Shown here: piece after piece, positions 1 through 62,843 of the stretch
How positions within the stretch are numbered: the stretch's first letter is position 1
How the letters are laid out: every line of letters starts with the position of its first letter
Origin: Blasia pusilla
Lineage: Eukaryota
Assembly: GCA_050084515.1 (NCBI GenBank)
Contig: CM114271.1
Location: 25,544,001-25,608,000, forward strand
Length of the DNA stretch: 64,000 bases
Reading direction: 5' to 3'
Notes under the pieces: generated by a model
Told to the model about the DNA's origin: nothing
Databases searched by the model: none
The model's input: only the letters and a program-made list of their open reading frames with translations
Made by a program: the position numbers and the translations under genes

Positions 1-3000
1 ACCCTGGTCTATCAACACCTCAGCCGGTGCGCCATAATGACTCAGCACTCTGTCAAGGAAGGCATAAGCTACTCCCTCACTCTCTTTGTCAGGAAATACA
101 ACCAACTCGATTCAATTCGAGAAGTGCTCGACCATCACCAACACATAACGACTATGACGCTCGTCAAAGGCAAAGGTCTTGCAAAATCCAAACTCCATCT
201 ATACCCTAAGCCCATGATTGATAATGGATGCAATTGTGGAGTCGGAGTATTGAACGATGCTCGGACCCGATCACACACCATGCACTTGGCAACAAACTGC
301 TGAACGTCATTCTGCATGCCTCGCCACCAATATTGAATCTGGAGCAAGCAATACCTCCGCTTCATCCCAAAGTCACCCAACTCCTCGTGGGCATGTTGCA
401 CTAGTCGTGCTCTTAGCGAAGGATGTGGCACTACGCGTACTCTGCCATCCTCCCAAACCCTCAAAATATGTGTCACCTCCCAATGGAACCGTCTGGCCCG
501 CTGTAGGATCCGATATCGCTCTCTAGCACCCACAGTGCTTGCAACGCTTCCAGTACAAAGGTACTCTAAGACTACTCCATCATCATGAATATCTCGGCCA
601 CTTGTCGTCTCCTCACTTGCCTCGGGATCCAAGGACTCTCTACTAGACCTCGCCATCGAAGTCTCCACACTCTAGCTCTCCATAGCCAACATGCCTAAAT
701 AGGCTGACGCGTGCCATCCTGGCACTGACTCCTCATCACTCTCTCCATGCCATCGAGCTCCAATCGCATCTCGTTGACTCGGGCATGGGTTAAGACTCAA
801 CCCATCTACATCCTGGTTGAGCGTCCTAGGTCTTTGTACCACCTGAAAATCATATTCTTGCAACAATAGAGCCCATCTTGCAAGCTTCACTGTAAGCTTG
901 TCGGACTCCATCAATCACTTCAGTGGTTGATGATCAGTGATGATGGTAAAGGGGTTGGCGAATAAGTAACACCTGAAATGTGCGAGAGCCCACACGGCAG
1001 CCAAGCACTCACCCTCATACGAGATGTACTTCGCCTCTGCAGCATTGTTCGAGCGGCTAGCATAAGCCACCACGAACTCTCTACCCTCATCATCATGTTG
1101 GGTGAGCACCGCTCCAAGCCCCAACATGCTCCAATCTGTGTGCAACTGGAAAGGACGCCCCCTGATCGGTCTCCTCAAGATGGGCGCGGACATCAACCTG
1201 TCCTTGAGCAACTGAAATGCTCGCTCCTGCTCATCCCCCCAATGCCACTCGTGATCCACCTTGGTCAACAAGGTCAGCGGCTTTGCAATCGAACTGAATC
1301 CCTTGACGTATTGCTGATAGAAGTTCGCCAATCCCATGAATGCGCGAACACGACTCACATCTGTAGGGCGTGGAATGTGTGAGATAGCCTCTACCTTCAT
1401 CTGCTGAACACCAAGGTCCCCTGGATATATCGTATGACCCAAGTACTCAATCTGGTCATAGAAGAACTTGCACTTGCCTGCATGTAGCTTCAGCCCATGT
1501 AATTACAATCGTCGAAACACCTCCTCTAGATGTCGCTCATGCTCCTCAACCGTGGCGCTAAAGACTATGATGTCATCAATATAACACCTAGAAAAATCCA
1601 GACCAGCCAAGATCCTATCCATGACCCTTTGAAACTCAGCCGGGAGTTCTTTAACCCAAATGGTAAGAACCGCCACTAGTACAAACAATCCTTCCCGTGA
1701 GGATCGATGCCCCAAAATTCCGTCTTCTACCTGTCCTCCAATTTGATAGGCAGCTGATGATATCCGGCTCGCAAATCCAATGATCTGAAGACCTTTACAT
1801 GACCAATCACATAAAAGATCTCCTCAAGGGTGGGCATGGCATACCTATAAGACTTTGTTTGTCGATTGATAGGTCGGTAATCCCCACACATCCGCCTATT
1901 CGTCCAGTTGCCATGCACATCCTTCTTGGCAGGCATAACATTGGCAGATGCATACTCCCCATACGACATCTCCACTAGTCCTGCTCCGACCAAGTCCAGG
2001 CTCCTACTCTGAATCAGAACCCTCTCCATATCACTGTACCTGTAGGGTCGTCGAAAGATTGGCGTATCACTCGAGAACTCAATGCGGATCCGCGGTCCCT
2101 TCAGCGTACCCAAATCCTCCATGCTAAACACAAAGCAACTCCTATAACTCCTGAGGAATTGATGTATTCGGTGCGGCTCTCCTCCTGTCAACTTAGGGCC
2201 CATATCTGGCTCCTAAGTCTCCATCGTGACTACGGTAGGACTCTCCGGCGCGGGTATCGGTGGTTGCTATGGTGCAACCACGTCTTGAACAACAACACTC
2301 GGCCGCTCTCCTGCAACCAACTGCAAACTCTGATCTCCTCCACGTGCAGTGCCCAAAACCACGCTCGATGTTGTGGCTATCATCTCCTTGTGTACCTGCA
2401 AAACATCCCAAGAAGTCCAAGGGTGTCTCTCCCAATCTCCCTTGGTATGTCGATCTCCTCGGGTCTCACCCCAAGCCACTGCCTCCACCATCTCGGTAGG
2501 CATGGGGCTCACCAACGCAACCGCTGTGATCTGTCGCGATCTCATCCGACGCTGCCTAGCCACTCCCAAGCTCAAGATCCATGTCAAGCAATTCATGTCC
2601 ATCGCTTGACCCAAGACATGGCGTCGTGATGCCTCTGACACTGATGGTACTGCCGTCACTCCTGTGGGAAATCCCATTGCTTGCTCTCTCTCGTCGGCGT
2701 TGGGCTCCACCAACCGCTGAACCTGGTCATCCCAAACCAAGCCAGGACCGGCCTCCTTGTATGCATAGGAAGCGGGAAAACTCATAAATTTGGGAAAGGC
2801 TGCCCACGACCTGCCTACCCTGTTGACCACAGTCAGCGGTGGTCGATCATCGTGCCTCACTCACTGCTTGTGATTGACGACGTGGATCTAGAATGGAATC
2901 CACTAACAAATGGGAGGGGCGCTCCTCTCTCGCATACGCTCTCCATAACACCGCATGGGGCACCAAGTTGGTCCACCATAGACGCGGGCGATAGGCTCTA

Positions 3001-4380
3001 GAACCTACACTCGCCGCATCCAAGAACATTGTTGGGCCGATCAGGCACGCACCTGATAAGCACTCGTCACCACCCGTGATCTGGAGTCTCCTAAGATCGG
3101 CACATTCTCCAGAATGTAGGCTGGAGAACGAGATTGGTGCTCCTGCAACTGCCGTAAGACCCTCAACATCTTCCAAAACAATCTGGACCGAGTGTCAGCC
3201 AACCCGCTACCTCGTCTAGCACTCGATTGGCCTTGACATGGCCAACCGGCAATGACCAAATCAATGGTCCCTACCCGCTCTAAGTCCTGCGCCCCCAACA
3301 AGGAAATATCCCTCGGTAGGGAACTCTAGTACCCCTGTACCGCGGACGTAGACAATAAGTCAGGAAAACGGAGGCGTAACTGTGCCACATGTCGTAGTGA
3401 GACGTGCCTTGCAACATCATCACTCTCCACATACAGGTACTGCTGTACTCGCATTCCTGCCTGCAAATCAGCATTTAACCCAGTGCTAATCCCTCCAAAG
3501 AGATCTAACACTCGAATACCCTCCTCGGGATACACCACACAATGGGTGTGGTATCCAAGGGTGTCATCGTAGCACTCCCTCCTACCTCGGGTTCCTCAGA
3601 CCTATCTCGCTCTGGTGCAAACACCTCCACACGGTCTTCACGTTCTCATCTGCCAATCGTCGAAGCTTCTCAGTCGAGCCCCACAACGACACCTCTCCTC
3701 CACGAAATGATGCAGCTACCATAACACTCTTCTCCATAGAAATGTCAGGAATGGGAGTATCCTCTGCATGGACATGTCCCTCAATCAAATCACTAGGCCA
3801 AGTCATGGCACTGCTAAATACTGCTAAGGTTGCCATCTCTCTTGGCCGTTGCTCGATCACTGTACCTGTGAATCGAACGGGTAATGAGCTAAGGCGCCCA
3901 TCACCTAACTGCCATCCTGGTTTGTAAGACGCTGATTCCTCCCAATAATCCAGAGAAAACCCCATCGGGTATAACACTGCTCCACCAACCAAGACGTCGT
4001 AGGACTCTGCATCAGTCACTATCGCCTGGCGCGCACCACGGACTCATCTGTAAGATGTCATGGGCGAATCCTCACCACGACCTCCTATCGGGTGATATAC
4101 TGGTGGTACTCGCTCCATCCAAGGATATCTATATCCGGAATGGAAAACACTCCACATCGGCTCTCGTCAAGCCCAATCCTCTGAATGACGCCTTCCTCAA
4201 CATCAGGGGTTGGGCTCCTGAATCCAACAAGACGTGTTGCGGACTAAAAGCTCTACCTCCAGGACTCACCAACTAGAATACCTCTCATCAGTTATCCAAC
4301 AACATAACACTAGGAGAAGCCATGGCACGCTCTATCGCGGATCTAGCAGACATCTCCGCCATCCTAGCAACCGCAGCCTG
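1..4380 (-). mobile_element. Ty3/Gypsy LTR retrotransposon internal fragment (copy A), DNMT-carrying family, diverged subfamily; cut at 4380 by copy B
   Basis: Minus-strand ORF pieces in order: protease region (3582-4260), DNMT (2530-3545), RT (RMCGDYRPIN, LDLRAGYHQ, CYIDDIIVFS; 1443-2203), RNase H (LHTDWSMLGLGAVL, EGECLA, TDHQPL; 672-1442), integrase HHCC and core (HAHEELG..CMVC, WSLDFA; 1-668). Confidence 0.93.
2530..3545 (-). pseudogene. DNMT3-like C5 cytosine methyltransferase domain inside pol of copy A (frameshifted)
   Basis: Motif I VLDLFGGISTG, motif II YLYVE, motif IV IDLVIAGWPCQG, motif VI YILENV, motif VIII RPRLWWTNL, motifs IX/X EREQAMGFPTGVT..SRRHVLGQAM, in canonical DNMT3 order. 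Confidence 0.9.
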
Positions 4381-8349: not shown

Positions 8350-9330
8350 GTATGGCAGTATCCGCCGGAGGGCATTTGTGTATTAGATCTCTTTGGTGGG
8401 ATTAGCACTTTGGTTTGATCTGATGTTGCGGCCGGTATTCTGGCGGAAATACGTGTATGTGGAGCGAGATGAGATGGCCCAGAGAGTCTCATGCCGACAT
8501 ATTGGTCAGTTAATGGGGAGATATCCTGAGTTGTTGCCGCCATCAGCTATTTGTGGGTACCAACGTGCTTTCCCGTCCCACATTGCATTGTTGGGGGCGC
8601 AGGACCTTGAGAGGGTTGGTCCTGTGGATTTGGTGATTGTTGGATGGCCACGTCAGGGTCATACACGTGTTGGTCGTGGATTACACGACCCGGTCTTGAT
8701 TTTTTTGGGAGATGTTACGTGTGTTACGACATCTTCACGTTCATCAAGCACGTGCTCCAGCTTACATTCTGGAGAATGTTCCATTGTTGGGTGACACTCA
8801 TACCCAGATGATGGCGAGTGTTCATGAGGTGCGTTCTTGGATTGGACCAGTGGTGTTGTTGGATGTAGCGCGAGTTGGCTTGAGTGCACATCGTCCACGC
8901 TTGTGGTGGACAAACTTGTTGCCTAGGGAGGTTCTACGTCGAGCATATGATGCAGTGCAGTGAGATCCTTGCCTTACAGTGGATAATATCTTGGATACTA
9001 GGCGACTTTCTCATGTGGTGAGGGTTATTGATCGATCACCCATGGCAGTGGTGAACCGTGTGGGCCAACCTAAGATGGCACTACCCACATTTGTGAGTTT
9101 TCCCTCGTCACATGCATACATGGAAGGTGGTCCCGGGCTTATATAGGATTCTCATGTGCGACAGTTGATGGAGCCTAGCGCTGATGAAAGAGAGCGTGCG
9201 ATGGGATTTGCTACTGGTATGACAGCGGTTGCTTCCATTTTGAGGCTTCACTACGTCATGTGTTGGGTCAGGCCATGGACCTGAATTGTTTGATTTGGAT
9301 TTTGAGTCTTGGTATGGCCGAGCAGCGTCG
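8350..9330 (+). pseudogene. DNMT3-like methyltransferase domain of copy B (frameshifts; catalytic PC changed to PR)
   Basis: ICVLDLFGGIST, YVYVE, VDLVIVGWPRQG, YILENVP, AHRPRLWWTNL, ERERAMGFATG, HVLGQAMD. Confidence 0.9.
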
Positions 9331-9429
9331 ACTTCGGACTATGTCTGTGGGTCTAGCTAAGGGTGTACCATCTTGTGAGGGGGTTGCGTAGCAGCCAATG
9401 GCATCGTCCTCTCCCTCTAGTATGCCAAT

Positions 9430-14325: not shown

Positions 14326-14328
<3 letters not shown>

Positions 14329-14374: not shown

Positions 14375-14376
<2 letters not shown>

Positions 14377-17258: not shown

Positions 17259-17428
17259 CATTTCCACCCCCTTCCCAGTTTATTCCAGGGAAATAAATTT
17301 TTACTAGATCATTTCCACCCCCTTCCCAGTTCATTTCAGGGAAATAAAGTTTTACTAGATCATTTCCACCCCCTTCCCAGTTCATTTCAGGGAAATAAAG
17401 TTTTACTAGATCATTTCCACCCCTTCCT
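17259..17428. repeat. 51-bp minisatellite, about 3.3 copies
   Basis: Unit CATTTCCACCCCCTTCCCAGTTCATTTCAGGGAAATAAAGTTTTACTAGAT starts at 17259, 17310, 17361 and 17412. Confidence 0.93.
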
Positions 17429-20724: not shown

Positions 20725-20890
20725 CATAAACAAATAAAGATGCACTTCGATAAAAACGTGTGATGGAAAACCCATCGGAAGTACAAAAGAGGGGGACTCA
20801 AAGAGTCAAAACCTGAAGGCCACAACAAGACCAGAAAAGGAAGAAGGGGCATTCCCCCCTAACGACGAAACTCACCAACAGCAAAGACAA
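20725..20890 (-). mobile_element. 5'-truncated copy (3' UTR only) of the CRE-like non-LTR element
   Basis: Near identical to about 22830-22985; flanked by the 7-bp direct repeat TATTTGA (20718-20724, 20891-20897). Confidence 0.85.
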
Positions 20891-43576: not shown

Positions 43577-44621
43577 GAATATCTTCAGTCAAGACTGCTA
43601 CCCACTAAGGAAGTCTTTATGCCTTCAAACAGAAGCTATGCATCGATGTCAGGTCACTTACTAATTAGTGAAAACACGAGGAAGAAATTCTCCAAATAGG
43701 GATGATACTTCTGTATATATATGTGACTTGCTATTACCTATAGCCTTTGTCATTTGCACTCCTTGAGTGGGTCCTAGCCCCAACCATTGAGGTTGTCCAT
43801 ACACTTCTGGAGTGCTATTATTGAGTCCATAAAGGTATTGGCTACTTCCAAACCGATCTTGACTATTTGCCACGGCATGATAGGATCCCTCGATGTAGTT
43901 GGAGAATCCACCTTCCATAGAGTCTACACATGACATATATGTCAGTGTAGTACAGACACATTACACAACCTTCCCACCATCATCCTATGATGTATAATGA
44001 AAGAGAAATTTGAGATGGAAATCGATAGATTCGTACTATTCCACCCTTGCCCCGTTGGACAATATCCACCGTATAATGAACTTGGCTTAGAGTTCTCTGC
44101 ATAGGGTCCATCTCTACCGCCTTGAGACATGCTTGCCTGTCCCTCTCCACTATATTGTATATCCACTTGCTGTTTGAGAGGAATACGACTTTCAGGTACA
44201 CGCTCGGGTGCAACATCCCTTGCCCAAGTAGCTTGCCCCCCAACAGTCCGTTTCTGCCAATGCAATGCAACCCACCAATTAGAGACAATTTCTTTCAAAT
44301 GGCACTAACCTTGAAACACAATTGTATACACACATCTTGTCTAATTGATTAGAAAAATAACCTGCTTCTTCTTCCCCCCAATAGTTGATGGACAGGGCTC
44401 CTTAGGTGCCGGAAGCTCATCTCAGCCTGATTGATCCTCTTCACCAAAATGTACAACAAACTCTGGATCACAAGCGGGACATTCTTCACCTCCAATCTGA
44501 GCATCAATGTCATCAGTAGATTCTACCATCGCTCCCAATACCTTTCCAAGCAATTGAGAGCTCCTCCGCTTCGGTCCAAGATGGAGAGGCTCCCTCTTTG
44601 CAGGTCGTGGGGCATGTACTT

Positions 44622-45202
44622 TGTCGTGCGAATCCACATCGTCATACAACATACATCGCTGACATACCATACGCACATACATACATAACATAGACGAGAG
44701 TATCCACAAACGCAAGTGTACCACAACTGAAATCCGTGAAAGACCTTCTGTCATAAAACACGTTTATAATCACATACAATCAAGCCAAACCCACTCCACA
44801 ATGGAAGAATCTAGGTCGAAGCTTGGGAAACACCATAGCCAAGAGCTCACGCACTACCAAGGCTAACTCCCCAACGCAAGCAGGCTCAACTCAAAGAATC
44901 GATCGTTCTTTGAGGGCAAGCCACCTTATATCCTCCAACCTAAGAGCGGGCCCCTCTTGGGAAAGTCACCCCAAGTGAGTAACCCCAACCCTATGTATGG
45001 AACCGCATCTCTACCAAGCCACTACGGTCCTACATAAGGAATGGCCTCTACCAGCACACCATACTCTACAACATAATCCGTATGGTCATGACAGCTGTCG
45101 TGCGAATCCACATCGTCATACAACATACATGGCTGACATACCATACGCACATACATACATAACATAGACGAGAGTATCCACAAACGCAAGTGTACCACAA
45201 CT
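44622..45202 (-). repeat. Composite 3' terminal repeat B1-gc-A2-gt-B2 of copy C
   Basis: 107-bp block 44622-44728 repeated almost exactly at 45096-45202 on both sides of segment A; palindrome GACAGCTGTC at 45090-45099. Confidence 0.93.
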
Positions 45203-45211
45203 CGCCCCCTA
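45201..45211 (-). promoter_or_regulatory. Putative polypurine tract
   Basis: Minus strand reads TAGGGGGCGAG-T-TGTGGTAC, immediately before B1. Confidence 0.65.
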
Positions 45212-45362
45212 GCGGCGGTTAGGTCCTCTAACTCCCAGGTAGCCCTATACATCTACTACATGGTATACACCTTCTTGGGTGCCCGAATCAGAAGGCCGGG
45301 TGCTAGGTTGCCCCATCGTTAGTCGCACATCTGTAATCCATATCATGCAGAGATCAAGTCAT

Positions 45363-46612
45363 CTACCTCTCATAAGTACATCGAGGACAAACCCACCTTC
45401 CAGTAGGAACAACATCCAAACGTGGAGTCAAACACATCATATGCCAACCCTTAGAACACCGATCACACACCAACATACGGGTTGCGTTACCAGCAGACCC
45501 ACACAACATGCACCTCAAGCTAGCACGTATCATGGCTAAGCTTGGGTCAACAATACCATCCACATTTGGAAGATGACATGGCGCACAATTACGCACATGG
45601 TCCTTCCAAACAACTCCATCACGACCCTCCAACATGAGAACTCCAGAAGCTAACACCTCACGCACTCGTAAAATAGTGCGGCCTGCCGTCACATCCAACG
45701 TTGTCGGTGCAATCTGCTGCAAATAGACATAGTCCCCCCACATGGAACCTACGAATCGATGGTCGATAACCTCCACCCCGAATGGTTGCATACCGCAACG
45801 TATCCCTGTGTTGAGCAATGGCAAGATTCTCAAAGGTCATTGGCATAACTCTCCGAAAGAGCTCCGCCCTGAGAACACACCCTCATCCACATCTCTGGGT
45901 CATCAAGGTTCACCACCTCACTAGACTCGGCAATTCTGCTTGGCAAGTCTGGATCTCGGCCGTATAACAGAAAATAAGGTGAGAAGGAAGCCAAGGATGC
46001 TTGGAGATTGAACCTATACCCCATGGCTAACCATGGCAACTTAATATCCCAGTCTCCAAGATGCCCCTTCTGTAGGCCATACTTGCGCAATGCCCTTTTC
46101 ACCGTCTGAACCACACGCTCAGCCAAACCATCCGCCCTCTGGATGATCGAGCGTGGTCCGATGATCAATCAACGCCTTGTCACACAAGACCGAAACTCAC
46201 CCTGAAACTCAGTATCTGGTCGGTCAACACTTGGTGGTGCACCAAAATGACTAAGCACTCTATCCAGAAACGCATACGCCGTTCCCTCACTTGCCTTGTC
46301 CGGTAATGCCACCAACTCAATCCACTTGGAGAAGTGCTCCACCATCACCAACACATAACGATGATGTCGTACAATCAACGGTAACGGTCCCGCAAAGTCC
46401 ACACTCCAACGGTAACCCAACCCCATAATAGGCAAGGGGTGTAATTGTGGTGTAGGGGCATTAAATGATGCCCTCACCCGGTCACAAACCATACAACGTG
46501 ACACCAATTGCTGCACCTGAGTATGCATGCCACGCCACCAATACTGGCCAAGGAGTAAGCTATACGTACGCTTTACCCCAAAATGTCCCAACTCCTCATG
46601 GGCATGTCGCAC
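45363..46612 (-). pseudogene. Integrase with C-terminal PHD finger (copy C)
   Basis: HAHEELGH..CMVC, WSVDFAGP, GLAERVVQTVK, SPYFLLYGR, then CMLCGSAGNATRMLVCDRCSKGWHMMCLTPRLDVVPTGRWVCPRC (C4HC3). Confidence 0.92.
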
Positions 46613-46741
46613 TGTCGCTCTCTCTCAGCCAAATGTGGCACTACTCGTACTCTACCATCCTCCCACACGCGGAGAATATGTGTTCCCTCAATCGATACCT
46701 CTTAGCACGTTGAAGAACACGGTCTCGCTCCTTGGTACTCA

Positions 46742-49700
46742 CTATGCCGGCACCCCTCTTGGTCCGTAGGAACTCCAACACCAACGCATCATCATGAACA
46801 TCACGCTGATCCGTACCACCATCTCCAACCTTAGGATCTCAAGGTGGCCATCTACCCCTCGACTAGAGTAAGATATCATGTGGTCCTCCATACTAGAGTC
46901 CACCCTAACCAACATAAAAGGCGGATGCATGCCAACCTGGCACCATCTCCTCATCAACCTCACCATGCCATCTAGCCCGGTTGTATCCTCTTGGCTAGTA
47001 CATGGGTTCCTACTCAACCCATCAAGCATCAAGGTTGGCAACTCCAGGTCTATGTACCACCGGAAGTCATACTCTGTAAGATAAGAGCCCACCGTGCAAG
47101 CTTCCATGTAAGCTTGTCCGACTCCATCAACCACTTGAGCGGTGGTGATCGGTAACAAGGGTAAAGCGTGTGCCAAACAAGTAACACCTAAAGTGTGCCC
47201 ACCCACACTCTTGCCAAGCACTCTCCCTCATATGAACTATAGCGACTCCATTTGCATTATTCGAACGACTTGCATAGGCCACCACAAACTCCATGTGCTC
47301 ATCATCATGTTGTGTCAACACCGCTCCAAGTCCCAACCTACTCCAATCAGTGTGTGACTGAAGTGGGCGCCCTCTGATAGGTCTCCTCAAGATAGGCGCC
47401 GCCACCAAATGGGCCTTGAGCTGCACAAAAGTTCTCTCTTGATCATCTCCCCAGTGCCACTCTTGATCTGATTTCAACAATTGGTTCAAAGGTTTGCCAT
47501 AGCACTAAATCCCTTCACATACATCCGATAGTAGTTCACCAATCCCATGAATGCCCGAACTTTACTCACATCTACGGGACGAGGAATAAGTGCAATAGCG
47601 TCCACCTTTGCTTGCTGAACTCCCAAACCACATGGATAGATCACATGACCCAAGTACTCAACATCCTCATGGAAGAACTTACACTTTCCTCGATACAAAC
47701 GTAGACCATGAGCTTTCAACCTCTCAAACACAATCTGCAAATATATCTGATGCTCATCCACCGTGTTACTGAACACCAAGATATCATCAATGTAACACCA
47801 AACAAAATCCAAACCTGCTAGGATCTTGTCCATCACTCTCTGAAACTTGGCAGGTATATTCTTCAACCCAAAGGGTAAGAATTTCCACTGGTACAAACAA
47901 TCCTTGCCATGAGAGTTGACACCCCAAAATGTTGTCTTGGCCTTGTCACTCTCTCGAATTGGCAACTGATGGTATCTTGCCCGAAGATCCAAAGTACTAA
48001 AAATCTTTGTCTGTCCCAACACATCAAAGATCTCCTCAGGTGTAGGCATGGCATACCTATCGGCCTTGGTCTGCTGATTGATAGGACGGTAATCTCCACA
48101 CATCCGCCTATCCGTGTAGTTGCCATACATATCCTTTTTAGCAGGCATGACAATGGCTGATGCATACTCTCCATGCGACAACTCCACTAATCCAGCCTCC
48201 AAAAGATCCAACGTCCTACTCTGAATCAGGACCCTCTCCATATCACTATATCAGTAGGGACGACCAAAGATTGGCGTATCACTAGCCAAATCAATCCGTA
48301 TACCGGATCCAACCAGAGCACCCAACTCCTTCATGCTAAAGGCAAAACAACTCCAAGAAGCACGTAGGAACTGTGTCAAGTGTCGTTTCTCACCTCCCGT
48401 AAGCTTGGGCCCAAGTAGTGGCTCCCAAGTCTCCTCCATTGGCATACTAGAGGGAGAGGACGATGCCATTGGCTGCTACGCAACCCCCTCACAAGATGGT
48501 ACACCCTTAGCTAGTCCGAAGTCGACGCTGCTCGGCCATACCAAGACTCAAAATCCAAATCAAACAATTCAGGTCCATGGCCTGACCCAACACATGACGT
48601 AGTGAAGCCTCAGAAATGGAAGCAACCGCTGTCACACCAGTAGCAAATCCCATCGCACGCTCTCTTTCATCAGCGCTAGGCTCCATCAACTATCGCACAT
48701 GAGAATCCTATATAAGCCCGGGACCACCTTCCATGTATGCATGTGACGAGGGAAAACTCACAAATGTGGGTAGTATATAGCGCGACTCCGCAGCATTATT
48801 CGAACGACTTGCATAGGCCACCACAAACTCCATGTGCTCATCATCATGTTGTGTCAACACCGCTCCAAGTCCCAACCTACTCCAATCAGTGTGTAACTGA
48901 AATGGGCGCCCTCTGATAGGTCTCCTCAAGATAGGCGCCGCCACCAACTGGGCCTTGAGCTGCATAAAAGTTCTCTCTTGATCATCTCCCCAGTGCCACT
49001 CTTGATCTGATTTCAAAAATTGGTTCAAAGGCTTTGCCATAGCACTAAATCCCTTCACATACCTCCGATAGTAGTTCTCCAATCCCATGAATGCTCGAAC
49101 TCTACTCACATCTATCGGACGCGGAATAAGTGCAATAGCCTCCACCTTTGCTTGCTGAACTCCCAAACCACATGGATAGATCACATGACCCAAGTACTCA
49201 ACATCCTCATGGAAGAACTTACACTTTCCTGGATGCAAACGTAGACCATGAGCTTTCAACCGCTCAAACACCATCTGCAAATGTATCTGATGCTCCTCCA
49301 CCGTGTTACTGAACACCAAGATATCATCAAATTAACACCGAACAAAATCCAACCCTGCTAGGATCCTGTCCATCACTCTTTGAAACTCGGTAGGTGCATT
49401 CTTCAACCCAAAGGGTAAGAATTTCCACTGGTACAAACAATCCTTGCCATGAGAGTTGATACCCCAAAATGTTGTCTTGGCCTTGTCACTCTCCCGAATC
49501 GGCAATTGATGGTATCCTGCCCGAAGATCAAAGTCTTGAAAATCTTTTGCCTGTCCCACACATCAAAGATCTCTCGGTGTAGGCATGGCATACCTATCGG
49601 CCTTGGTTTGCCGATTGATAGGACGGTAATCTCCACACATCCGCCTATCCGTGTAGTTGCCATGCATATCCTTTTTAGCATGAGGCATGGCGATGGGCGA

Positions 49701-49985
49701 TGCATACTCTCCATGCGACAACTCCACTAATCCAGCCTCCAAAAGGTCCAACGTCCTACTCGAATCAAGTCCTCTCCATATCACTATATCGGTAGGGACG
49801 ACGGAAGATTGGCGTATCACTAGCCAAATCAATCCGTATACCGGGTCCAACCAGAGAACCCAACTCCTTCATGCTAAAGGCAAAACAACTCCTATAAGCA
49901 CGTAGGAACTGTGTCAAGCGTCGTTTCTCACCTCCCGTAAGCTTGGGCCCAAGTAATGGCTCCCAAGTCTCCTCCATTGGCACAC
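46742..49985 (-). pseudogene. RT-RNase H of copy C, present twice in tandem
   Basis: First RT/RNase H at about 49985-48775; second copy, starting with the DNMT C-terminus, from 48774 through RT ORF 47486-48241 and RNase H 47127-47489. Confidence 0.9.
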
Positions 49986-50239
49986 TAGAGGGAGAGGACG
50001 ATGCTATTGGCTGCTACGCAACCCCCTCACAAGATGGTACACCATTAGCTACACCATCATCGAGCAAATAACTCCTCCACAGCAAAGATGAGCAACCAAC
50101 TCCACATGCCCAGCCATTACATCCCATCTACTCCAAGGATGCAAAATACTACTCTCCTCGCCCCCAGCCGATGCCTCTACCGTCCCGGTAGACATCGAGC
50201 TCATTACAAGGGGTGGAAGACCCACAGACATAGTCCGAA

Positions 50240-51235
50240 GTCGACGTTGCTCGGCCATACCTAGACTCAAAATCCAAATCAAACAATTCAGGTCCATGGC
50301 CTGACCCAACACATGACGTCGTGAAGCCTCGTAAATAGAAGCAACATTTGTCAAACTCAGAGCAAATCCCATCGCACGCTCTCTCTCATCAGCGTTAGGC
50401 TCCACCAAGTGTCGCACATGAGAATCCCATACAAGCCCCGGACCACCTTCCCTATAGGCATGTGACGAGGGAAAACTCACAAATGTGGGTAGTGCCATCC
50501 TAGGCTGGCCCACACGGTTCACCACTGCCATGGGTGACCGATCAATAACCCTCACCACTTGGGAAAGTCGCCCATTATCCAAGATACTATCCACTGTAAG
50601 GCGAGGATCCCGCTGCACTGCATCATATGCTCGACGTAGAACCTCCCTAGGCAACAAGTTTTTCCACCACAAGCGTGGACGATGTGCACGCGAGCCAACT
50701 TGCGCTGCATCCAACAACACCGCTGGTCCAATCCAAGAGCGCACCTCATGAACACTCGCCATCATCCGGGTCCGAGTGTCACCCAACAATGGAACATTCT
50801 CCATAATGTAAGCTAGAGCACGTGCCTGATGAACCTGAAGATGTCGTAACATCCGTAACATCTCTTAAAACAATCGAGACCTAGGGTCATGTAATCCCTC
50901 ACCACGACCAGCACGTGTATGACCCTAACATGGCCATCCAGCAATCACCAAATCCACAGGACCAATTCTCTCAAGGTCATGCGCCCCCAACAATGCAATG
51001 TGTGATGGTAAAGCACGCTGGTACCCACGAATAGCTGATGGCGGCAAAAACTCAGGATATCTCCGCATCAACTAACCAATATGTCGGGATGAGACTCTGG
51101 GCCGTCTCAACTCGCTCCACATACACGTATCTCCGCACAGGAATACCGGCCTGCAACACTGCAGCCAAACCAGTGCTAATCCCACCAAAGAGATCTAACA
51201 CACAAATGCCCTCTGGCGGATACTACCATACAATG
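50240..51235 (-). pseudogene. DNMT3-like methyltransferase domain of copy C
   Basis: ICVLDLFGGISTGLAAVLQAG, VDLVIAGWPC*G, and ORF 50049-50861 with YIMENVP, AHRPRLWWKNL, ERERAMGF, SRRHVLGQAMD. Confidence 0.92.
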
Positions 51236-51599
51236 GGTGTAGTATCTAAAGGGGATAACCCAACTGGGCCAGAAGTAGGAGTCCGCCGTGGGGCCTCCTC
51301 TTCCTCGTGAGGTATAACCTCACACCAAGCCTCTGCACTAGGCGATCGCCTCTGCCATAGTGCACCGCTGAACTCCAAAGTGGCACATCCAACGATGAGG
51401 ATGCCCTTTGTTGCAAAAAAATAGGGAACTCCTCTTCCTCCTCATGCGCAGGAGAATCCATAGCGAAACATTGACCTCCAAAAGTCTCTGGCCAAGTGAC
51501 TACTCCACTAAAACCACCCACAGATGCTAACACTATTGGGGAAGACCCTCTTGGTCGAGCCCGTAAATAAATCTCACAGAACTTGGCTCATACGTCCAT

Positions 51600-54080
51600 C
51601 CCGGATCGCCAACCTGGTCTATAAGACATTTGTCTCGACCCAAGAATCCATCCGAAAACCCATCGGGTACAACATCGTCCTCCAACTAGTACATCATACG
51701 ACTCGGCTGATGTGACTACTGCAGATACTCCCAACCGGGAGCTATCAGTCGCATGATCTAGTCTCAACTGTATACAGAAAACTTCTCCGTGTCATGAATT
51801 GAGACCTATCATTGGCTCCTCCAAGTGATGTTTGAATCTGGAATGGGCAAGGCTCAAGCTCTGACCTCCGAATACCCAAACCAATACATGCCGCCTTTCC
51901 CAACATCAAAGGTTGGGCACCAGAGTCTAACAAGACTCTATCTGGTCTATACACCTGTCTTGTAGGACTCACCAATCGGAAGATCCCACTCCGGTTGTCC
52001 AACATACATACACCAGGTGTAAGCCTCTCACGATCAATGGCTGGCCGGGCTGGTAATGCATCCATCTTCGCCGCTGCTGCCTGCCAAGTAGCACCGGGTA
52101 CTCAATGCTACTCTGACATAGAGGGTCGCTCCACCGCAACACCCTCATCCACCTCAACACGTGTAGCAGTAACACCCCCACGTTCACACAACGTGGTTGC
52201 TAACTGAAATACATGAGCTAAGTCAACTCCTAAAGCCATCAGCTCCGTGGCCGAAAACAATGGGGATCCCAACACTGAAGTTGCCATCCGCATATTGCAT
52301 TGATCCGCATCCGTGTCTACTACACGCGATGTAGATGCCTCGATCCCCCCACATTGCCCGCTCAATAGGCTGCGAGGAACCATGGATGGAGTCCTAAGCA
52401 CCTCGAGACAACAAGAATGATGGGAAGCCTAGCGCCTCCCACCTCACCCCTATGTGGGTCCAACTCCACAAGAGCACCACGTGGCTCGACGCTCGAGTGG
52501 CTCCTCTCAGAATCGGTGATGCCTCAACCTCAGGCCGCACTCGCCATATAAGAGAGATCATCCCTCCATAAGAGGTGGAAGCCCTTGCTCCCGAACCTGA
52601 TCTATCTTTGGATACCGACCATAGTAGCCAACTTCTCTGCTCCAATGCTCAATCCTGAAAGCCATAGCCGACTGTCGTAGTGGTAGGGGTAGCCACCGTA
52701 GGCTCTCCAACCACTGGTCCACCTCTACCACCCCTACCACCTCGGCCTCTCGGAGCTACTCCACCATGGCCACGGCCTGATCTCAACTGTGGATGAAGAT
52801 CAAAGCAACGCTCTCGAGGATGACCTAGTCTCCCGCAATGATCACACCTGAGTTGGGGCCTCACTGAGGCCCATCCTCCAAAGTCCGTCTCCCATCCTCT
52901 TGGGGACAAAACTTCCTAACATGATCACCTCCACATGTCCAACATGATCGCCCTTGCTGCAGGGCAGCAAATGAAGGCAATGGTCTTTGCACAAATGTCC
53001 CTCTAGGACTTGACGAGGTCGCGTGTACCCCCACGACTCCCACTACTACTACCACCACCACTACTACGAGGCGTGAGGTGGGGCTTTGAACACGAGAAGT
53101 AGTAGTTGTATCCCCTACTTGAATGCGGATGTCACCACTCTCTCCTTCACCATGTTAAGCTCAATCTTCTCGAGATAGAGCAAACACATGGGTCAATGTG
53201 GGTGAATCATCACTCATAAGAGTAGCATCACGCACCCTACGGCGCAAATCTCTCATCCAAGATCCCATACCAAAACTGGACTGCCTGATCCTCAGTCACA
53301 CCCTGGGTAACTAAAATCAAGCGTCGCATATACGTGTATGCCTCACGAAGACTCTCACCAGTCTTTCGCTCAAAGTCTTGAAGATTCCTCAACTTCTCCG
53401 TCTTCACTCCTTGATAGTTCTTCTTCAACCTCTTGAAGAACTCGCAATCGGGCTAAAGGATGGTGGGGCACTAGTACCCCCACTAGTACCTCCACGGTAC
53501 CCCCACTCCGGCTCGTACTGCGTACCACTCAGTCGAAATTTGGCGGGCATAGTAGGAGCACTACTACCAATACCACCATGGGTGATAGACACATAGCACG
53601 GAGACCAATATTGTCTCCATGCCTCAATCTCAGCAACATGGTCCTTCCTAAACTCATGGTAATCATCCATGGGTGGTCCTTCCAAGTGCTGAAAGAACCC
53701 CTTCCAAGCCAAGAAGGGTGTAAACAACGTGGCGTTCCGCAAGATCTGCATATCACACCACGTATCAAACTCCCCGCATGAAGTCCTCCAACTCAATGGT
53801 ACCCACTGCGCACCGAGTATCGTCGTGGGCCCTTCATGGCCCCATATCCACCGTCCATGTCCCAAATCAATGGAGCTGCAACACTCGATAACAACGTAGA
53901 AGACTCGGTGTTTGGAACACCCTCGTCCTCCTCTTCATCAACCGTCGGAAGTGGAAAAGGTAGCCGATACCTAAATCCACTCCGTGTGAAACCACCACCA
54001 TCCGCACCACGGTCCCCAACCGAGACCACCCGACGACTCCGTGATGACCAACGCCGATGCCGCACCACCACCAAATTACC
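51600..54080 (-). pseudogene. gag and protease of copy C
   Basis: gag core as in copy B, knuckles CWTCGGDHVRKFC and CDHCGRLGHPRERC, an RGG-rich tract, protease VLLDSGAQPLML. Confidence 0.88.
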
Positions 54081-55531
54081 AAGTGATGTCGATGTCGCTA
54101 TACTATTCTAGCTCTACTAGCTATGGGTGTAGGCAACCTAAGTTGTCATCACCACAAGAAAGTCTCCCACAATCTACTCGTCATCCCTCCAGCCTCACTA
54201 CCGGTAGCACACATGAGTAACACTACTCTGGAAATCAGCGTCAACCCTAACAATGGGCGCGCAAGCAAGAAGCACGATGGAGGGGATCCAAACACAGGAA
54301 ATCCAACGACAACCCTCCAATCGCAAATGGAAATCAAGGTAACACAATCCACCAAACGTGGTGCCCTCTGAATCCACAAAACCCACCACACAATTCTAAC
54401 GCAATAGCTACTCCGCCGCGGGTCGATGACGTGCTAGTCGAACTCGCAGCACCTGAAAATATCACCTGCATGGAGAGGCTACACAGTACTATGCGCTAGA
54501 GGTACATCAACCAAAAACCTGAGATGCATAAAGTGCCTAAGACCTCTCCGAGCTACAACAGTCTGTACACTGGCATAGTTAAGAACTCAGCAGTTAAGCG
54601 TCCTCCAGGCAGAATAGCCCAAAGATGGGTGACCAGTTATGCAAAACTCAAATCCTAAATCCTGCAAAAATTGCCTCACGCCCAAGCAAGCAAGCTTGCT
54701 TGCTTGCTCCTTGTCCTTACTCCGCCTCTCACGCCCACTCGCCCCGAGCTACCACGAGTTGCCTCGAAGCCTCAAAACGCCGAGACATGCCCCTATCGCC
54801 CCGTTCGCCATGCTTCGCTAAGGAGAGAGGTCCAACCAGGGCGCCCCCAACGGGATAGGCGTCTCCAAAAATGAACGAGTCACCAATCAACCAGCCCCTC
54901 CGATCCTCTGTCCACCATAGCCAGACCTTGAGCTAGTCCGTGAAATTTCGATCAAAAATTACTTCACAAATACGTGACCGAAATCAAATCTATTTCAATC
55001 AGAATTCAATTGACCACCATAGCTATCTCCTTACAAAAACTCAACTACAACCGAGCTCCGTACTCCGAGCTAAAAATCAGACAAACTTGCTGTCCATACA
55101 CCTCTAGAACCGCAAATCCGGCTAAAGGCTTCCGCCAAGTTTCATGCACGAGAAATCCGCAACGCTCCACGCACTCAAGCAGATAGCTTCACATGAGATC
55201 ACAATACAAGTAGTAATAGGAACCTCTCACCCGATCTGGATGATTCAACAGAGCTTCCGCACTCCAAGCTCTCCACATCAGAAAACTGTCGAACACGACC
55301 AGAATCTTCAATGCTTGATAACTTCCAACTCCCTTGACGAAATCCGGCGATCTACAGCGCGTTGGAAAGCTCTCAGCAAGGCGCTTCTTTCCCAACCAAC
55401 TGCGCACCAGATTCACACCTCCAACATAGGCCACAAGCCACGAACATCCACGGCTGAGTACACAATCAGCCCTAACCAGATCCTACTGATCTACAATCGA
55501 AGCTACCATCAATCTACTCCAGTTCTTTGAG

Positions 55532-55896
55532 TGAAATCCGTGAAAGACCTACTGTCATAAAACACGTTTACAATCACATACAATCAAGCCAAACCCACTC
55601 CACAATGGGAGAATCTAGGTCGAAGCTTGCGGGAAACACCATAGCCAAGAGCTCTACTCACTACCAAGGCTAACTCCCAATAACACGCTCAACTCAAAGA
55701 ATGATCGTTCTTTGAGGGCAAGCCACCTTATATCCTCCAACCTAAGAGCGGGCCCTACTGGGAAAGTCACCCCCAAGTGAGTAACCCCCAACCCTATGTA
55801 TGGAACCGCATCTCTACCAAGCCACTACGGTCCTACATAAGGAATGGCCTCTACCAGCACACCATACTCTACGACATAATCCGTATGGTCATGACA
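55532..55896 (-). repeat. 5' terminal repeat (segment A1) of copy C
   Basis: Direct repeat of 44728-45093; minus strand TGTCATGACC...GGATTTCA. Confidence 0.93.
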
Positions 55897-56208
55897 ACTT
55901 GCTTAGAACAAGCCTCTGCGCTGCACATGAGGACGAGTTTTTCAAGAACATGAATTATGCACAATGCTTATGATTCATTCATAAAGGCCCACACCTGAGT
56001 GCTCAATATGTCAAAGCTTACGATTCAACGCCTCTCTGTTTGAGTTCTTCCGCCAGTTCCTTAAGGCGTCTGATCACATAAGCCGCGTGGGCCTCAACAG
56101 GGTCACACATTTCATTCACATTTTCCATCAAATTCCTTAAAAAAAAAAACAACCTGCATGTCCCATGAACCCATGCCGAATGACATAACACACCACACAA
56201 ACATTTCT

Positions 56209-59200
56209 TTAAGAACCCACGACATCATTAAGTTTCTTTGCAATCTCAATGTTTCCTTCCCATCTTTCTACCCTCATCAAGGGTACATAATGACTTTCGA
56301 CAGCTGTGACAGGTTGAACCGTTCTATTGGGAGCTTCAAAAGCCCCATGGCCATCTAAATTGAACTCCAAAGTATTACTTGATACCCTACGATTCCTCGC
56401 GTGCTTGTGGCACACTACTCGCCATCCGTGCGATGCGTCCATGTCTAGGAAGAAAGCCTGTTCAACTTGACTAGGGAATACAAAAGGTTCGGACCATTCA
56501 GGTTGCATTTGCCTGAAGTTTGCTAGTAAGAATCCATCACTACCACGCTTTATTGTAGCCCTAGCCCCACGCCAATCTGGTCGCACCCAAGTCCCTTTCA
56601 TGAGAATGATAGGATTGGGTGTGTTCCCATAGTCCAAATTCCATATGTCAGTTAGCTCTCCTATGTATCCCATTTGCATCCATCCTCTATCTTGGTGATT
56701 GCTCATTTGCTCGATTACAGATATCAACCCTGAATCATATGTGACAAAATAATCGTCACTTTGATCTACCACACGGCAGTAGTTTCCATAGGCTTGCATT
56801 CTCTTGTAAGCTAAGACGGACATTCGAGGTGGAGCAGAAAGAAGATAGACATCCTGGTCCATATTTGGGTGTAGTGTTGAATGCTCCCGGATGGCCAATC
56901 GAATCCATTATGTGAGTGGTGGAAAGCCCCCCGTACCACCCCCAATATGTGCATTCTTCTCCATATTATATTTCCTGTAGAGGTCATGCCATTATTAGCC
57001 GACCGGTATCTGGTGAGCGACGACATGAAATAAAACAAGGAAGCCAAGTAAATGCAACAACAAGTAGACTTCAGTCATTCAACCCTTTACTTACCTCCAC
57101 CATATGTTGCATTACACTAGTGTTTTGCAACACATATTCATGAGCCATCTGCCAAATATGCCTCGGCAATTGCAATGGGGAACCTCTGCCTTGAAGAACT
57201 TCACCTACAGCTCCCTCATCTTCCTCCACTTGCCATATCCTGGCCTTCACATGTTCAAACCCCGCCATATACTCTATCAAATATCCCAAGGTCTCGTGTG
57301 AAATGTAACCCATTGCCATGCTAGCCTCAGGCATGTATCTTGTCAAGACATGGTCTTTCAAGACTTTCATAAAACGCTCCAGTGGGAACATCCACCTGGT
57401 ATAAACATGCCCATTCTGTCCAAGCTCTTCCACAACCTGGATAACGAGATGAATCATCACATCAAAGAAGGCGGGAGGAAAATGGATCTTCAAATCGCAC
57501 AATAATTCTGCCACATCATCTTTGAGCTTGGGAAAGCTTGTTGGATCAAAGACCTTCACACATATACGACCAAACACCTTGCACAATCATATGATTGCAT
57601 TACAAATCGGCTTCTGCATCAATCCCCTTAAGCATACATGCATAATATGTTGCATAAGCACATGATAATCGTGTGTCTTCATACTACTGAGTTTCTTGTT
57701 TTTTACATGCTTTTTGAAGGCACATGCATAGACGATCGGAACTCTCAAAGATTGAAGCCTCGAAATAAATTTTGTCCACTCTATGTCTGTGCAAACATAA
57801 GGTGCCTGGTATTTCAATACCACATTGGGTTTGTTCTCATCATCCTTTAACCAGAATGGAGAACCTATTCTCCTCTCTTGGAGATCCAATTGCATTGTTG
57901 TGGTGTCCTTCTCCCCAGAAAGGAACCTCAATAGGCTCTCACATACATTTTTCTCACTATGCATTACGTCTAGATTATGTTTGCTAGGGTCGAACTCGTG
58001 TTACACCACATATGACAACCATGAGTACAAATGGATGATAAACGAGCCTCAATTCTTGAAAGCATATGGTGTGGCAAATAATAGACATTGCAACCATGGC
58101 GGATGGGTGACATAGATTACCCGCCAGTAGTCCAACTCCACATCAAGTATGCTCTGCCGTTTCACACCATATCTCTATCATGGATCTCATTGAGCATTTG
58201 GAGCTTCTGTATCTTGGCGTTCCAATCCCCCTATAAACCCACACCTGTGCCTCTTTCCATGTCATACATGGTCTTTTGGTGTCCCCAATCCAGAATCTGC
58301 TCTTTAGTGACTCTTGGAGGTGGACCACGAAGCTCTCAAGCATTGTTGAATTGAACTATCTGTGACGCCCTATGTCTGTAAGGATGATCAAGTGGGAGGA
58401 AACGTCGATGTCTAGTGTATTTCATGCTCCTCAAAGGTCTGGAATGCTCACCATTGAAATTGGGGCCACATGATGTACAAGCCAAATACCCCTTTGTTGC
58501 CTGACCGGAAATCATGCCGTGGGCTGGATAATCTCTCAAAGTCAATACCAATTGGGCTTTTAGCTTGAGTGGGTTTGGTCTCCCAACCCGTTGCACCACA
58601 TCATGGATCCAAATGCCTTTGTACCACAAGCGCTTCAACTCATCCACAAGAGGAGCTATCCAAACATCTATATTCCTAGAAAGAGCAGATTGTGGGCTCG
58701 GGATAAGCAAAACCAATATGACAAAAAACTTCTTAGTAGTCAACCACGGAGGGAGGTTGTAATTCAGCATGGTTTCAGGCCAGCAAGAATATCCATTGTT
58801 CTTGTCTCCGAATGGATTGACTCCATCATTCGAGAGGCCAAGTCTCATGTTCCTTGTCTCTCTTGCAAACTCTGGCCATCTCCGCTCGATGAATCTCCAA
58901 TGTTCTAAATCTCCAATGTGCCACTGCAGGCCATCAATACTCTTGTTCTCGGCTGTCCAAGTCATCAACTTTGAAATATTTGGGCTCTTGTACATCCGTT
59001 TCAATCTAGGAATGATTTCAAAATGTCGAAGTACCTTTGTAGGTTGCATGGACTTGCCCACATTCCTATACCTTTGTTCTCCACATACCGGACAACTTGA
59101 TCAATTTGCATGCTCTCCTATGAAGAGCATATGGCCATCAGGGCAAGCATGAATGGAATTGTAATTCAATCCAAGACTTGACAACAATTTAGTTGCCTCG

Positions 59201-61707: not shown

Positions 61708-62843
61708 CTAAAGTGTGGGATCAACTTTGTGATGGTGGCAATAGAACCACCACCTATCCTCACCACATGCACCATGGTCATATATAATCCGATCGCATGC
61801 ATAACCCTTGCTCATAGCCTTCTTCAAGCAAGTCCAATGCCATGCAGTGGGGCACCTAGGACAATAGACCATGTCCTCCCACAACTCCTCATCATGCTTA
61901 TGGCATTCTGGGTAATAATGCATGGGGAAAGACTCCACTCCAGTAGGCAAACAAGTAAAGCAAAAAAACCTCACACAAAAGGTATATGGGCACTTTCTCA
62001 CACGAAATCCCATAATCCTCGCTCTCTGCAAAACTCCCATCTAGACCACAATTGGCACACCTGGCCATTTTCCTCACACAATCTTGGCACAACCAGCTCC
62101 CCTTGTGGTTTGGTAGGAGGTTGACCCCTGGGCAAGAGTTCTCTATAGCCCCCGCTGATTTTGCAGTTGCATGGAAGTGTCTGGCACAAGGCCCGTCGCA
62201 AACAACCAGGTCTTTCCCATGTTGTGCGAATCCACATCGTCATACAACATACATCGTTGACATACCATACTCACATACATATATATCATAGACGAGAGCA
62301 TCCACAAACACAAGTGTACCACAACTGAAATCCGTGAAAGACCTACTTTCATAAAACACGTATAGAATCACATACAATCGAGCCAAACCCATTACACGAT
62401 GGGAGAATCCAGGTCAAAGCTTGCGGGAACCACCATAGCCAAGAGCTCTACTCACTATCAAGGCTAACTACCAAGGCAATAGGCTCAACTCAAAGAACTA
62501 ACTGTTCTTTGAGTGCACTCCACACTATATCCTCCAACCTAAGAGCGGGCCCTACTGGAAAAGTCACCCTCAACTCAGTAAACCCCAACCCTATGTATGA
62601 AACCGCATCTCTACCTAGACACTACGGCCCTACATAAGGTATGGCCTCTATTAGCATACTATACTCTACGACATAATCCGTATGGTCATGATACCCATCA
62701 TCACAGATTGCACAAATGTGGGTTGCCTTTTGCAAAACCTGGAGTGCACTATATGGCGCATAAGTGCTCATCTTGAGGGTTTTCTTGGCCTCGTATTTCG
62801 GGCGCGCCATCCTTGTACTCGTACATTTTGAGACAAAAGACAA
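61708..62843 (-). pseudogene. EDM2/NSD-type multi-PHD finger ORF interrupted by solo D
   Basis: Removing 62220-62693 and one TSD gives HICAICDDGKDLVVCDGPCARHFHAT..WLCQDCVRKMARCANCG, then RKCPYTFCVRFFCFTCL..CPRCPTAWHWTCL after a frameshift. Confidence 0.8.
62220..62693 (-). mobile_element. Solo terminal repeat D (A-gt-B) of the Gypsy-DNMT family
   Basis: Matches 44622-45093 end to end; 4-bp TSD CCCA at 62216-62219 and 62694-62697. Confidence 0.95.

Follow-up and report, generated by a model that had tools for sequence, protein, structure and literature searches.

Retrotransposons that carry a DNA methyltransferase (DNMT) are already known, and the closest described relative of the elements reported here is KnitGypsy-Dnmt3 from the charophyte alga Klebsormidium nitens. 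This Gypsy element encodes an unpermuted Dnmt3 within its Pol open reading frame (ORF), the domain is reported to evolve with Ka/Ks < 0.2, and the order of its repeats is described as 'the same as that of a DIRS retrotransposon', i.e. 'A-coding region-B-A-B' (PMC5890265). The same study reports the DNMT-bearing elements SymbioDIRS-Dnmt3 and SymbioLINE-Dnmt from Symbiodinium, and passages in later papers of the field speak of 'streptophytes (Gypsy-DNMT3)', citing the 2018 work. The so-called EpiLTRs are described as retrotransposons with both a DNA methyltransferase and a reader domain; their DNMT is reported to be the sister group of DNMT4 and to be accompanied by an adenine methylase (10.64898/2026.05.21.726589). 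Here we analysed a 64-kb stretch of DNA from Blasia pusilla (contig CM114271.1 of assembly GCA_050084515.1, positions 25,544,001 to 25,608,000; referred to in the following as the window). With a probability that we put at roughly 85%, it holds dead copies of a liverwort-related family with a Ty3/Gypsy backbone, which encodes a DNMT3-type cytosine-5 DNA methyltransferase and is of the same kind as KnitGypsy-Dnmt3. An initial annotation of the window had already pointed to DNMT capture by retrotransposons in dinoflagellates and a charophyte alga.

By self-BLAST, a single Ty3/Gypsy-type retroelement family was found in the window, represented by three copies (A, B, and C) and one solo repeat (Table 1). 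Copy A is truncated by the start of the window, and its 5' part stops at the start of copy B. In copy C the order is repeat A1, leader, gag, protease (PR), DNMT, a stop codon, reverse transcriptase (RT; partly duplicated), RNase H (RH), integrase (IN), PHD finger, and the repeats B1, A2, and B2. The Gypsy order PR-RT-RNaseH-IN was thus recovered, with RVT_1, RT_RNaseH, Integrase_H2C2, and rve following each other in the Pfam scans. The gag ORF of copy B gave a weak Retrotrans_gag match (E 0.021). The protease was assigned from its DSG motif and from its homology with relatives that match Asp_protease; the aligned part of the metagenome relative P0023 (residues 729-917) is the one that holds the Asp_protease_2 match of that protein. 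At the three loci of the window nothing is functional any more.

The methyltransferase domains were located by three-frame translation and mapping to coordinates, and the ranges proposed for them by the initial annotation proved correct to within ∼15 nt. In all three copies the C5 methyltransferase motifs I, IV, VI, VIII, IX, and X stand in the canonical, collinear order, with LDLFGGIST(G) as motif I, ENVP as motif VI, ERE(Q/R)AMGF as motif IX, and LGQAMD as motif X. The claim that all copies carry the same motifs holds for this series, but not for every residue: motif IV is an intact GWPCQG in copy A only and reads GWPRQG in copy B (catalytic Cys to Arg) and GWPC-stop-G in copy C, and motif VIII is RPRLWWTN in copies A and B, but RPRLWWKN in copy C. 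The catalytic Cys is kept in A and C, in the latter with a stop directly after Pro-Cys. Stops and frame changes interrupt each of the three domains, in line with the proposal that the copies are disabled, and copy A indeed represents a diverged subfamily: at the DNA level its DNMT region shares 67.3-67.7% identity with those of B and C, compared to 90-95% between B and C (self-BLAST). A search with PF00145, suggested at the time as a check, was performed on nine frame translations with stops read as X. Two of them scored above the cut-off of 22 bits, namely frame 0 of copy A (40.8 bits, E 2.4e-10) and frame 2 of copy C (31.8 bits, E 1.4e-7). Copy B gave no single-frame match to PF00145, because its frameshifts fall between the motifs and spread them over three frames. 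The uninterrupted 271-aa ORF at 50049-50864 alone gave no Pfam match. For comparison, relatives of the family scored 24.7-44.8 bits, including 36 bits for the metagenome locus L002.

Copy C is bounded by repeats in the order A1-coding-B1-A2-B2, with TG...CA ends and 4-bp target duplications; the ordinary layout with two long terminal repeats (LTRs) was not found in this copy, its repeats being split as A-coding-B-A-B. The same arrangement was present at the divergent locus L013 (3396-3678, 15524-16004), where a G-rich run precedes B1 and the element is flanked by AGAA at either end. The solo A-B repeat of the window is the remnant expected from recombination between A1 and A2. Split direct repeats of this order are also found in DIRS/Ngaro/PAT-type elements, which are defined by a tyrosine recombinase. 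The window elements resemble these elements in repeat order, but carry rve and Integrase_H2C2 instead and are flanked by target duplications; no match to Phage_integrase (tyrosine recombinase) was found in the Pfam scans. A similar distinction applies to the Symbiodinium elements: both are retrotransposons with a DNMT, and the DIRS form is Dnmt3-like with A-coding-B-A-B repeats, but they are described as using a tyrosine recombinase (DIRS) or as non-LTR elements (LINE), whereas the window elements combine a DDE integrase with 4-bp target duplications (PMC5890265). A further observation concerns the ends. The A1 and A2 repeats of copy C differ by ∼6% while B1 and B2 are ∼99% identical; gene conversion between the neighbouring B copies and a recombinant 5' end are both possibilities.

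The integrase frame of copy C ends in a PHD finger, and its Cys/His pattern is common to the Marchantia protein P0055 and to algal relatives. Chromoviruses, i.e. Gypsy elements with a chromodomain after the integrase, likewise have a chromatin reader fused to the integrase C-terminus, but the reader of the window elements is a PHD finger and not a chromodomain. The difference from the EpiLTRs lies in the methyltransferase, which here is DNMT3-like and not accompanied by an adenine methylase (DAM), according to the published account of those elements (10.64898/2026.05.21.726589).

The lineage features described for KnitGypsy-Dnmt3 (Gypsy domains, a Dnmt3 encoded with the polyprotein, and DIRS-like A-coding-B-A-B repeats) were found in copy C and at L013. 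The algal and the window elements also share a DDE integrase and the unpermuted form of the Dnmt3, and both families show purifying selection on the DNMT (Ka/Ks < 0.2 in the alga; dN/dS ∼0.2 in the window family, see below; PMC5890265). We filed the window elements as land-plant members of the KnitGypsy-Dnmt3 kind because each described feature is present in them, the comparison being with the published description only. They differ in host, the alga being a charophyte and the kin of the window elements coming from liverworts and mosses, and in the very high copy number of the window family in one DNA run. The main text on the algal element is silent on a conserved stop codon after the DNMT and on a PHD finger (the word PHD occurs 0 times in it), although both may be in its Fig. 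4c; nor does this text name Marchantia, liverworts, mosses, or Sphagnum (PMC5890265). Two liverwort genome papers, as far as consulted, say nothing of methyltransferases within repeats, passages of a Marchantia review, the Marchantia 4mC preprint, and the Mpmet preprint contained no statement on a DNMT encoded by a land-plant retrotransposon, and we found no open-access main text, the scope being main texts without figures and supplements, that reports a DNMT-bearing retrotransposon in land plants. We thus take the element as a land-plant representative of a kind already known, and not as a new kind.

A query with the domain of copy C matched 59 proteins, the best of them 74% identical. Of the 59, 21 carried organism names, exclusively those of bryophytes: Marchantia polymorpha accounts for 17, and Calypogeia fissa and Sphagnum for two each. 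In the database these 21 are listed as hypothetical proteins. We then compared 71 rows in a tree, comprising the three window read-throughs (with X at the breaks), 67 database proteins with a full domain, and one insect DNMT3 as outgroup; proteins lacking the complete domain (25 of 187) were left out, as were most of P0074-P0187, from which 17 were chosen by hand. The window copies fell inside a clade with five Marchantia, one Calypogeia, and two unnamed rows (SH-aLRT 100), in which B and C together are sister to the Marchantia rows (92) and A stands separate. The suggestion that DNMT capture extends to a land-plant Gypsy lineage is supported by these named matches and by the position within a liverwort clade. 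The family is also abundant: one DNA run (X1) contained 208,110 contig pieces at least 90% alike to it, and a profile search of the whole library returned 508 cluster representatives at E <= 1e-30.

A second architecture was recovered with the relative P0053 as query, which retrieved 192 proteins with the order RT-RH-DNMT-IN-PHD (type 2). Four of these are from Haematococcus lacustris, one is from Monoraphidium neglectum, and one is labelled Chrzof1; at locus L008 the whole order is contained in one 2027-aa ORF. Green algae in the MMETSP have no DNMT3 according to Hoguin 2023 (PMC9998398, consulted in part). The DNMT stands before RT in type 1, to which the window copies belong, and after RNase H in type 2. 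This difference in position would agree with a capture of a host DNMT3 by a Gypsy lineage of bryophytes, separate from the Klebsormidium event, the likeness being convergent as it is between the Symbiodinium DIRS and the algal Gypsy elements. DNMT capture is indeed known to recur (PMC5890265, 10.64898/2026.05.21.726589, both as far as consulted), and our protein searches, with candidate lists of 4015 to 8000 word-sharing proteins, returned no Klebsormidium match, which is weak evidence. Nevertheless, we regard a separate capture as improbable. The unusual combination of A-coding-B-A-B repeats with a DDE integrase is common to the window elements and the published description of the algal element, and these shared repeats favour the same lineage over a fresh capture. 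Moreover, the two types are about equally similar in RT-RH (45% identity), IN (46%), and DNMT (40%), and the PHD finger is present in both, which points to a single old lineage and an internal rearrangement that moved the DNMT module.

To which class of methyltransferase the domain belongs was judged from comparisons with solved structures. A family profile, built from an alignment of seven diverse members and searched against the PDB, returned 54 rows. The best was DNMT3A (1e-23, 87 bits), aligned in two collinear stretches that correspond to motifs I-VIII and IX-X, followed by DNMT3B (2.8e-22) and DNMT3C (1.2e-21). DRM reached 2.7e-12 with motifs I-IV only, which mapped to the C-terminal part (229-354 of 357) of its permuted chain, and DNMT2, M.HaeIII, and other bacterial enzymes scored ∼1e-6; no DNMT1 was among the 54 rows. 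A single Calypogeia relative (P0003) gave the same leading match, with DNMT3A first at 8.4e-11, then DNMT3B, DNMT3C, plant DRM, M.HaeIII/M.HhaI, and DNMT2, and its Atlas model aligned to vertebrate DNMT3A clusters with TM 0.75. The only match in the protein search that is not a transposable element (TE) was a wasp DNMT3 (27% identity). The ranking against solved structures and this one insect DNMT3 indicate that the domain is DNMT3-like and, given the collinear motif order from I to X, not circularly permuted in the manner of DRM, as had been proposed. It resembles animal DNMT3A/3B/3C and plant DNMT3, which are the best matches by sequence and predicted structure, in the collinear motifs, the short target-recognition region, and a motif VIII of the R-x-R-x-(F/W)-W-x-N type. 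Identity to host DNMT3 is only ∼25-30%, and the window domain differs from it in having no adjoining PWWP or ADD domain (Pfam), a host-enzyme feature that is not expected in a captured catalytic domain; its sole reader is the PHD finger far off, after the integrase. With plant DRM (DRM2, tobacco DRM) it shares the DNMT3/DRM superfamily and the alignable motifs I-IV, but not the permutation.

It is conceivable that the domain of live elements is not a DNA methyltransferase, but a silent regulator like DNMT3L or an RNA-acting enzyme like DNMT2. Thirty-six alignment columns are invariant across the seven diverse family members, among them F/G of the S-adenosylmethionine-binding motif I, the catalytic Cys, EN of ENV, R-x-R, and ERE. 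This conservation of the residues in all seven is hard to reconcile with a silent regulator, although Glu replaces Pro of the Pro-Cys motif in two of them. An activity like that of DNMT2 has in its favour that the authors of the algal study raised RNA methylation for the LINE-borne DNMT, while in our profile search DNMT2 was 17 orders of magnitude worse than DNMT3A. In its only published assay, in yeast, the K. nitens domain produced no methylation, a result called inconclusive by the authors, whereas two DIRS-borne DNMT3 domains methylated CG de novo (PMC5890265). We therefore think it unlikely that a function other than DNA methylation accounts for the domain.

Several observations indicate that the methyltransferase is a genuine part of the element. 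It lies downstream of the protease and upstream of RT in all three copies, including the diverged copy A, and in the same order and place in eight metagenome loci. Furthermore, a single ORF joins CCHC, PR, and DNMT in three metagenome relatives (P0020, P0023, P0033) and DNMT, RT, RH, and IN in another (P0048). At locus L002 an uninterrupted 449-aa DNMT ORF is followed by a stop and then, in the same frame, by RVT_1, and further by RNase H and rve. Because of the same place in diverged copies, the relatives that carry the domain in one protein, and the shared frame at L002, the domain belongs to the element, and its earlier description as a stable part of it agrees with these continuous ORFs. 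An alternative that we consider hardly credible is that the methyltransferase stretches stem from a host DNMT3 gene, or from a different element, nested into the retrotransposons, or that they are artefacts of gene models. NCBI gene models such as P0004 do appear to splice across the stop, so that some database 'fusions' are artefacts. However, the order and place recur in the window copies and the metagenome loci, single metagenome proteins join the DNMT with PR or with RT-RH-IN, L002 is one reading frame split by the stop alone, and self-BLAST found no repeats or target duplications flanking the domain in the window.

Selection on the domain was estimated as dN/dS from codons that correspond to one and the same position in an intact guide protein. 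Blocks from tblastx were discarded, as wrong frames were mixed in. For the pair B-C, values guided by P0004 and P0001 (pS ∼0.26) are too high, owing to wrongly mapped frames where the reading frame is shifted, while those guided by P0048 and P0003 (pS 0.12-0.16) agree with the 90% DNA identity. Between the window copies B/C and the loci L001-L003, dN/dS of the DNMT was 0.20-0.24 at dS 0.74-0.85, which is not saturated. Between A and B/C it was 0.22-0.26, or 0.18-0.35 with other guide proteins; with these other guides, RT-RH gave 0.14-0.20 and IN 0.07 for the same comparison. Close pairs, i.e. B-C and L001, L002, and L003 among themselves, showed dN/dS of 0.63-1.04. Since distant comparisons give ∼0.2 and close ones ∼0.7, the domain was under purifying selection in active lineages, the usual pattern where a selected domain decays freely once inserted; the dN/dS check proposed by the initial annotation thus argues against neutral evolution between lineages.

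All three copies carry an in-frame stop ∼75-90 codons past the DNMT domain and in frame with RT. It is found at the homologous codon in eight of eight alignable sequences, namely the three window copies and the loci L001, L002, L003, L006, and L007. At the five metagenome loci the stop is TAG in three cases and TAA in two, and the next two codons are CAA CCC or CAA CCT. Likewise, of 28 relatives in which the domain is complete, 23 terminate 55-166 residues beyond it and have similar tails. UAG_CAR_YYA is the tobamovirus-type leaky-stop signal (PMC3542737, consulted in part), and the hexamers of the window copies fit this plant-virus context. The coding order is gag(CCHC)-PR-DNMT, stop, RT-RNaseH-integrase-PHD finger, and the DNMT is the C-terminal domain of the gag-PR-DNMT frame. 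The domain had been placed at the same position of pol in each copy; this is accurate with respect to its place between PR and RT, but the DNMT does not form one pol reading unit with RT.

A number of points weigh against the interpretation as a land-plant KnitGypsy-Dnmt3 family with a DNMT3-type enzyme. All three window copies are broken, as are seven of the eight close metagenome loci examined. Membership in the KnitGypsy-Dnmt3 kind was assigned by published description, and the DNMT3-like class by the ranking of solved structures and one insect DNMT3. Pfam detected no protease family on the window's own PR ORFs. Concerning the stop codon, the exact CAR-YYA hexamer is present in the window copies only, two of the five metagenome loci having TAA, and no stop separates the DNMT from its neighbouring domains in P0048 and in type-2 algal forms such as L008. 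The Pro-to-Glu exchange in two of seven relatives, the negative yeast result, and the lack of a Klebsormidium protein among the matches, all given above, are to be counted on the same side.

Because the conserved stop follows the DNMT, the primary product of live copies would be Gag-PR-DNMT, and the methyltransferase would then be made at Gag-like abundance. RT-RH-IN-PHD would arise from occasional readthrough of the stop in its UAG-CAR-YYA context. Made or packaged with Gag, the DNMT might methylate the new cDNA of the element or the DNA at the insertion site, and the PHD finger might steer the integrase to a particular histone-tail state. Methylation of cDNA by a TE-encoded DNMT has been proposed before (PMC5890265). 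More broadly, and only as a tentative picture that we hold to be rather doubtful in its entirety, there may be an old green-plant Gypsy lineage in chlorophytes, a charophyte, and bryophytes with a 'write and read' kit, consisting of a DNMT3 at Gag level by way of the leaky stop and a PHD finger on the integrase. Such elements would combine DIRS-like replication with DDE integration and, in land plants, methylate their own cDNA before or at integration. This would provide a TE-encoded de novo pathway beside host DNMT3 and RNA-directed DNA methylation, at high copy number in some liverworts.

Some details of the copies remain to be added. The internal tandem duplication of copy C covers the C-terminal end of the DNMT and the N-terminal half of RT, and it is private to this copy because six contigs of DNA run X1 connect 48513 to 50061 without it. 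The sense strand of all three copies (1-11540, 44622-55896) shows a strong skew of G over C (+0.21 to +0.25), compared to -0.05 to -0.15 elsewhere in the window. CpG observed/expected is 0.61-0.72 in the elements and 0.44-0.64 in the rest of the window; the two are not distinct, and we conclude nothing from them on past methylation. Contigs of 244-578 nt, ∼95-97% alike, cover the DNMT part in three runs that were taken, as a guess, for RNA (e.g., X12, 50361-50744 and 50800-51347; X16, 50526-51056; X19, 50195-50438); DNA carry-over is possible, so these contigs show nothing on transcription.

Besides the family, the window contains remains of a CACTA/En-Spm-type DNA transposon (57074-59100, minus strand; Transposase_21 2e-53, DUF4218 2.1e-23) and, in a GC-rich patch, a 337-aa ORF (24024-25034, minus strand) with a weak RVT_1 match (1.2e-7), a separate and unrelated retroelement remnant. 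An ORF at 14904-15395 (minus strand) matches PF10712 'NAD-GH' with E 1.5e-25. Members of this Pfam family are suspected of being translated rRNA, but in this case Rfam searches of the whole window at gathering score and of 12500-18500 at E <= 0.01 found nothing, and thus no rRNA at this ORF. ARAGORN found nothing in the window. A direct repeat pair of 163 nt (20732-20893 and 22825-22986; 95% identity) lies ∼2.1 kb apart.

Table 1. Positions of the family and its parts in the window, and type-2 relatives (the latter in the numbering of their locus)
Feature	Coordinates	Strand	Remarks
Copy A	1..~4380	-	diverged subfamily; part of PR, DNMT, stop, RT, RH, IN
Copy B	4381..~11540	+	A1 (4381-4747), gag, PR, DNMT, stop, RT, RH, partial IN; ends near 11540
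Copy C	44622..55896	-	sole copy with both ends (self-BLAST, junction reads, tblastn with relatives)
DNMT domain, copy A	2546..3535	-	GWPCQG intact; stop at 3328, 2 frame changes
DNMT domain, copy B	8359..9331	+	GWPRQG; stops at 8961 and 9144; 3 frame changes
DNMT domain, copy C	50241..51222	-	stops at 51074, 50927, 50867; frame change at 51097/51098
Conserved TAG, copy A	2267..2269	-	TAG CAA CCA; in frame with C-terminal part of DNMT and RT
Conserved TAG, copy B	9389..9391	+	TAG CAG CCA
Conserved TAG, copy C	50014..50016	-	TAG CAG CCA; RT N-terminus in frame after it (50013->49765)
Gag region, copy C	52649..54107	-	two CCHC knuckles, decayed; ORFs, tblastn to P0001 residues 1-357
Aspartic protease region, copy C	51511..52101	-	LLDSGAQ motif from 51933; aligned with P0023 729-917
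Internal tandem duplication, copy C	47254..50493	-	~1.54 kb; 48793-50493 vs 47254-48774
Reverse transcriptase, copy C	47486..48250	-	second copy of duplicated part; RVT_1, E 5.4e-29
Integrase, copy C	45830..46624	-	H2C2 zinc domain and DDE core; Integrase_H2C2 3.6e-15, rve 4e-7
PHD finger, copy C	45378..45512	-	C-terminal end of integrase frame; PF00628, E 8e-11, 42.2 bits vs cut-off 24
Repeat A1, copy C	55532..55896	-	TG...CA; 93.85% identical to A2, 374 columns, 11 gaps
Repeat B1, copy C	45096..45201	-	preceded by purine-rich AGGGGGCGA run, polypurine-tract-like
Repeat A2, copy C	44728..45093	-	dinucleotide GC between B1 and A2
Repeat B2, copy C	44622..44727	-	ends ...CA; ~99% identical to B1 (1 mismatch, 107-nt probe)
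Target-site duplication AAGT, copy C	55897..55900 and 44618-44621	.	read directly
Solo A-B repeat	62220..62693	-	target-site duplication TGGG at 62694-62697 and 62216-62219
Type-2 relatives	locus L008, 1400-7480		RT-RH-DNMT-IN-PHD at this locus, and in proteins P0053, P0056, P0097, P0108, P0117, P0118, P0139, P0141

For the window alone the finding is an ordinary one, because the copies are dead repeats. Its interest lies in a known paradox, namely that retrotransposons carry the very enzyme with which hosts silence them, and we know of no function shown for a silencing enzyme borne by a retrotransposon. The published streptophyte case is one alga, which is hard to manipulate. Marchantia polymorpha, on the other hand, is a haploid, transformable model plant for which methylation mutants and methylomes are available. 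Three features of the family described here can be checked, namely a putatively leaky stop, a PHD finger, and split repeats together with a DDE integrase, and the conserved stop leads to a checkable prediction on the amount of the enzyme relative to RT. If elements of this kind are abundant in liverworts and present in M. polymorpha, their purpose would become testable in a model land plant. One could then ask whether freshly inserted copies are methylated on arrival, whether the element's own enzyme contributes to methylation in the host, and whether insertion sites are selected by the PHD finger.

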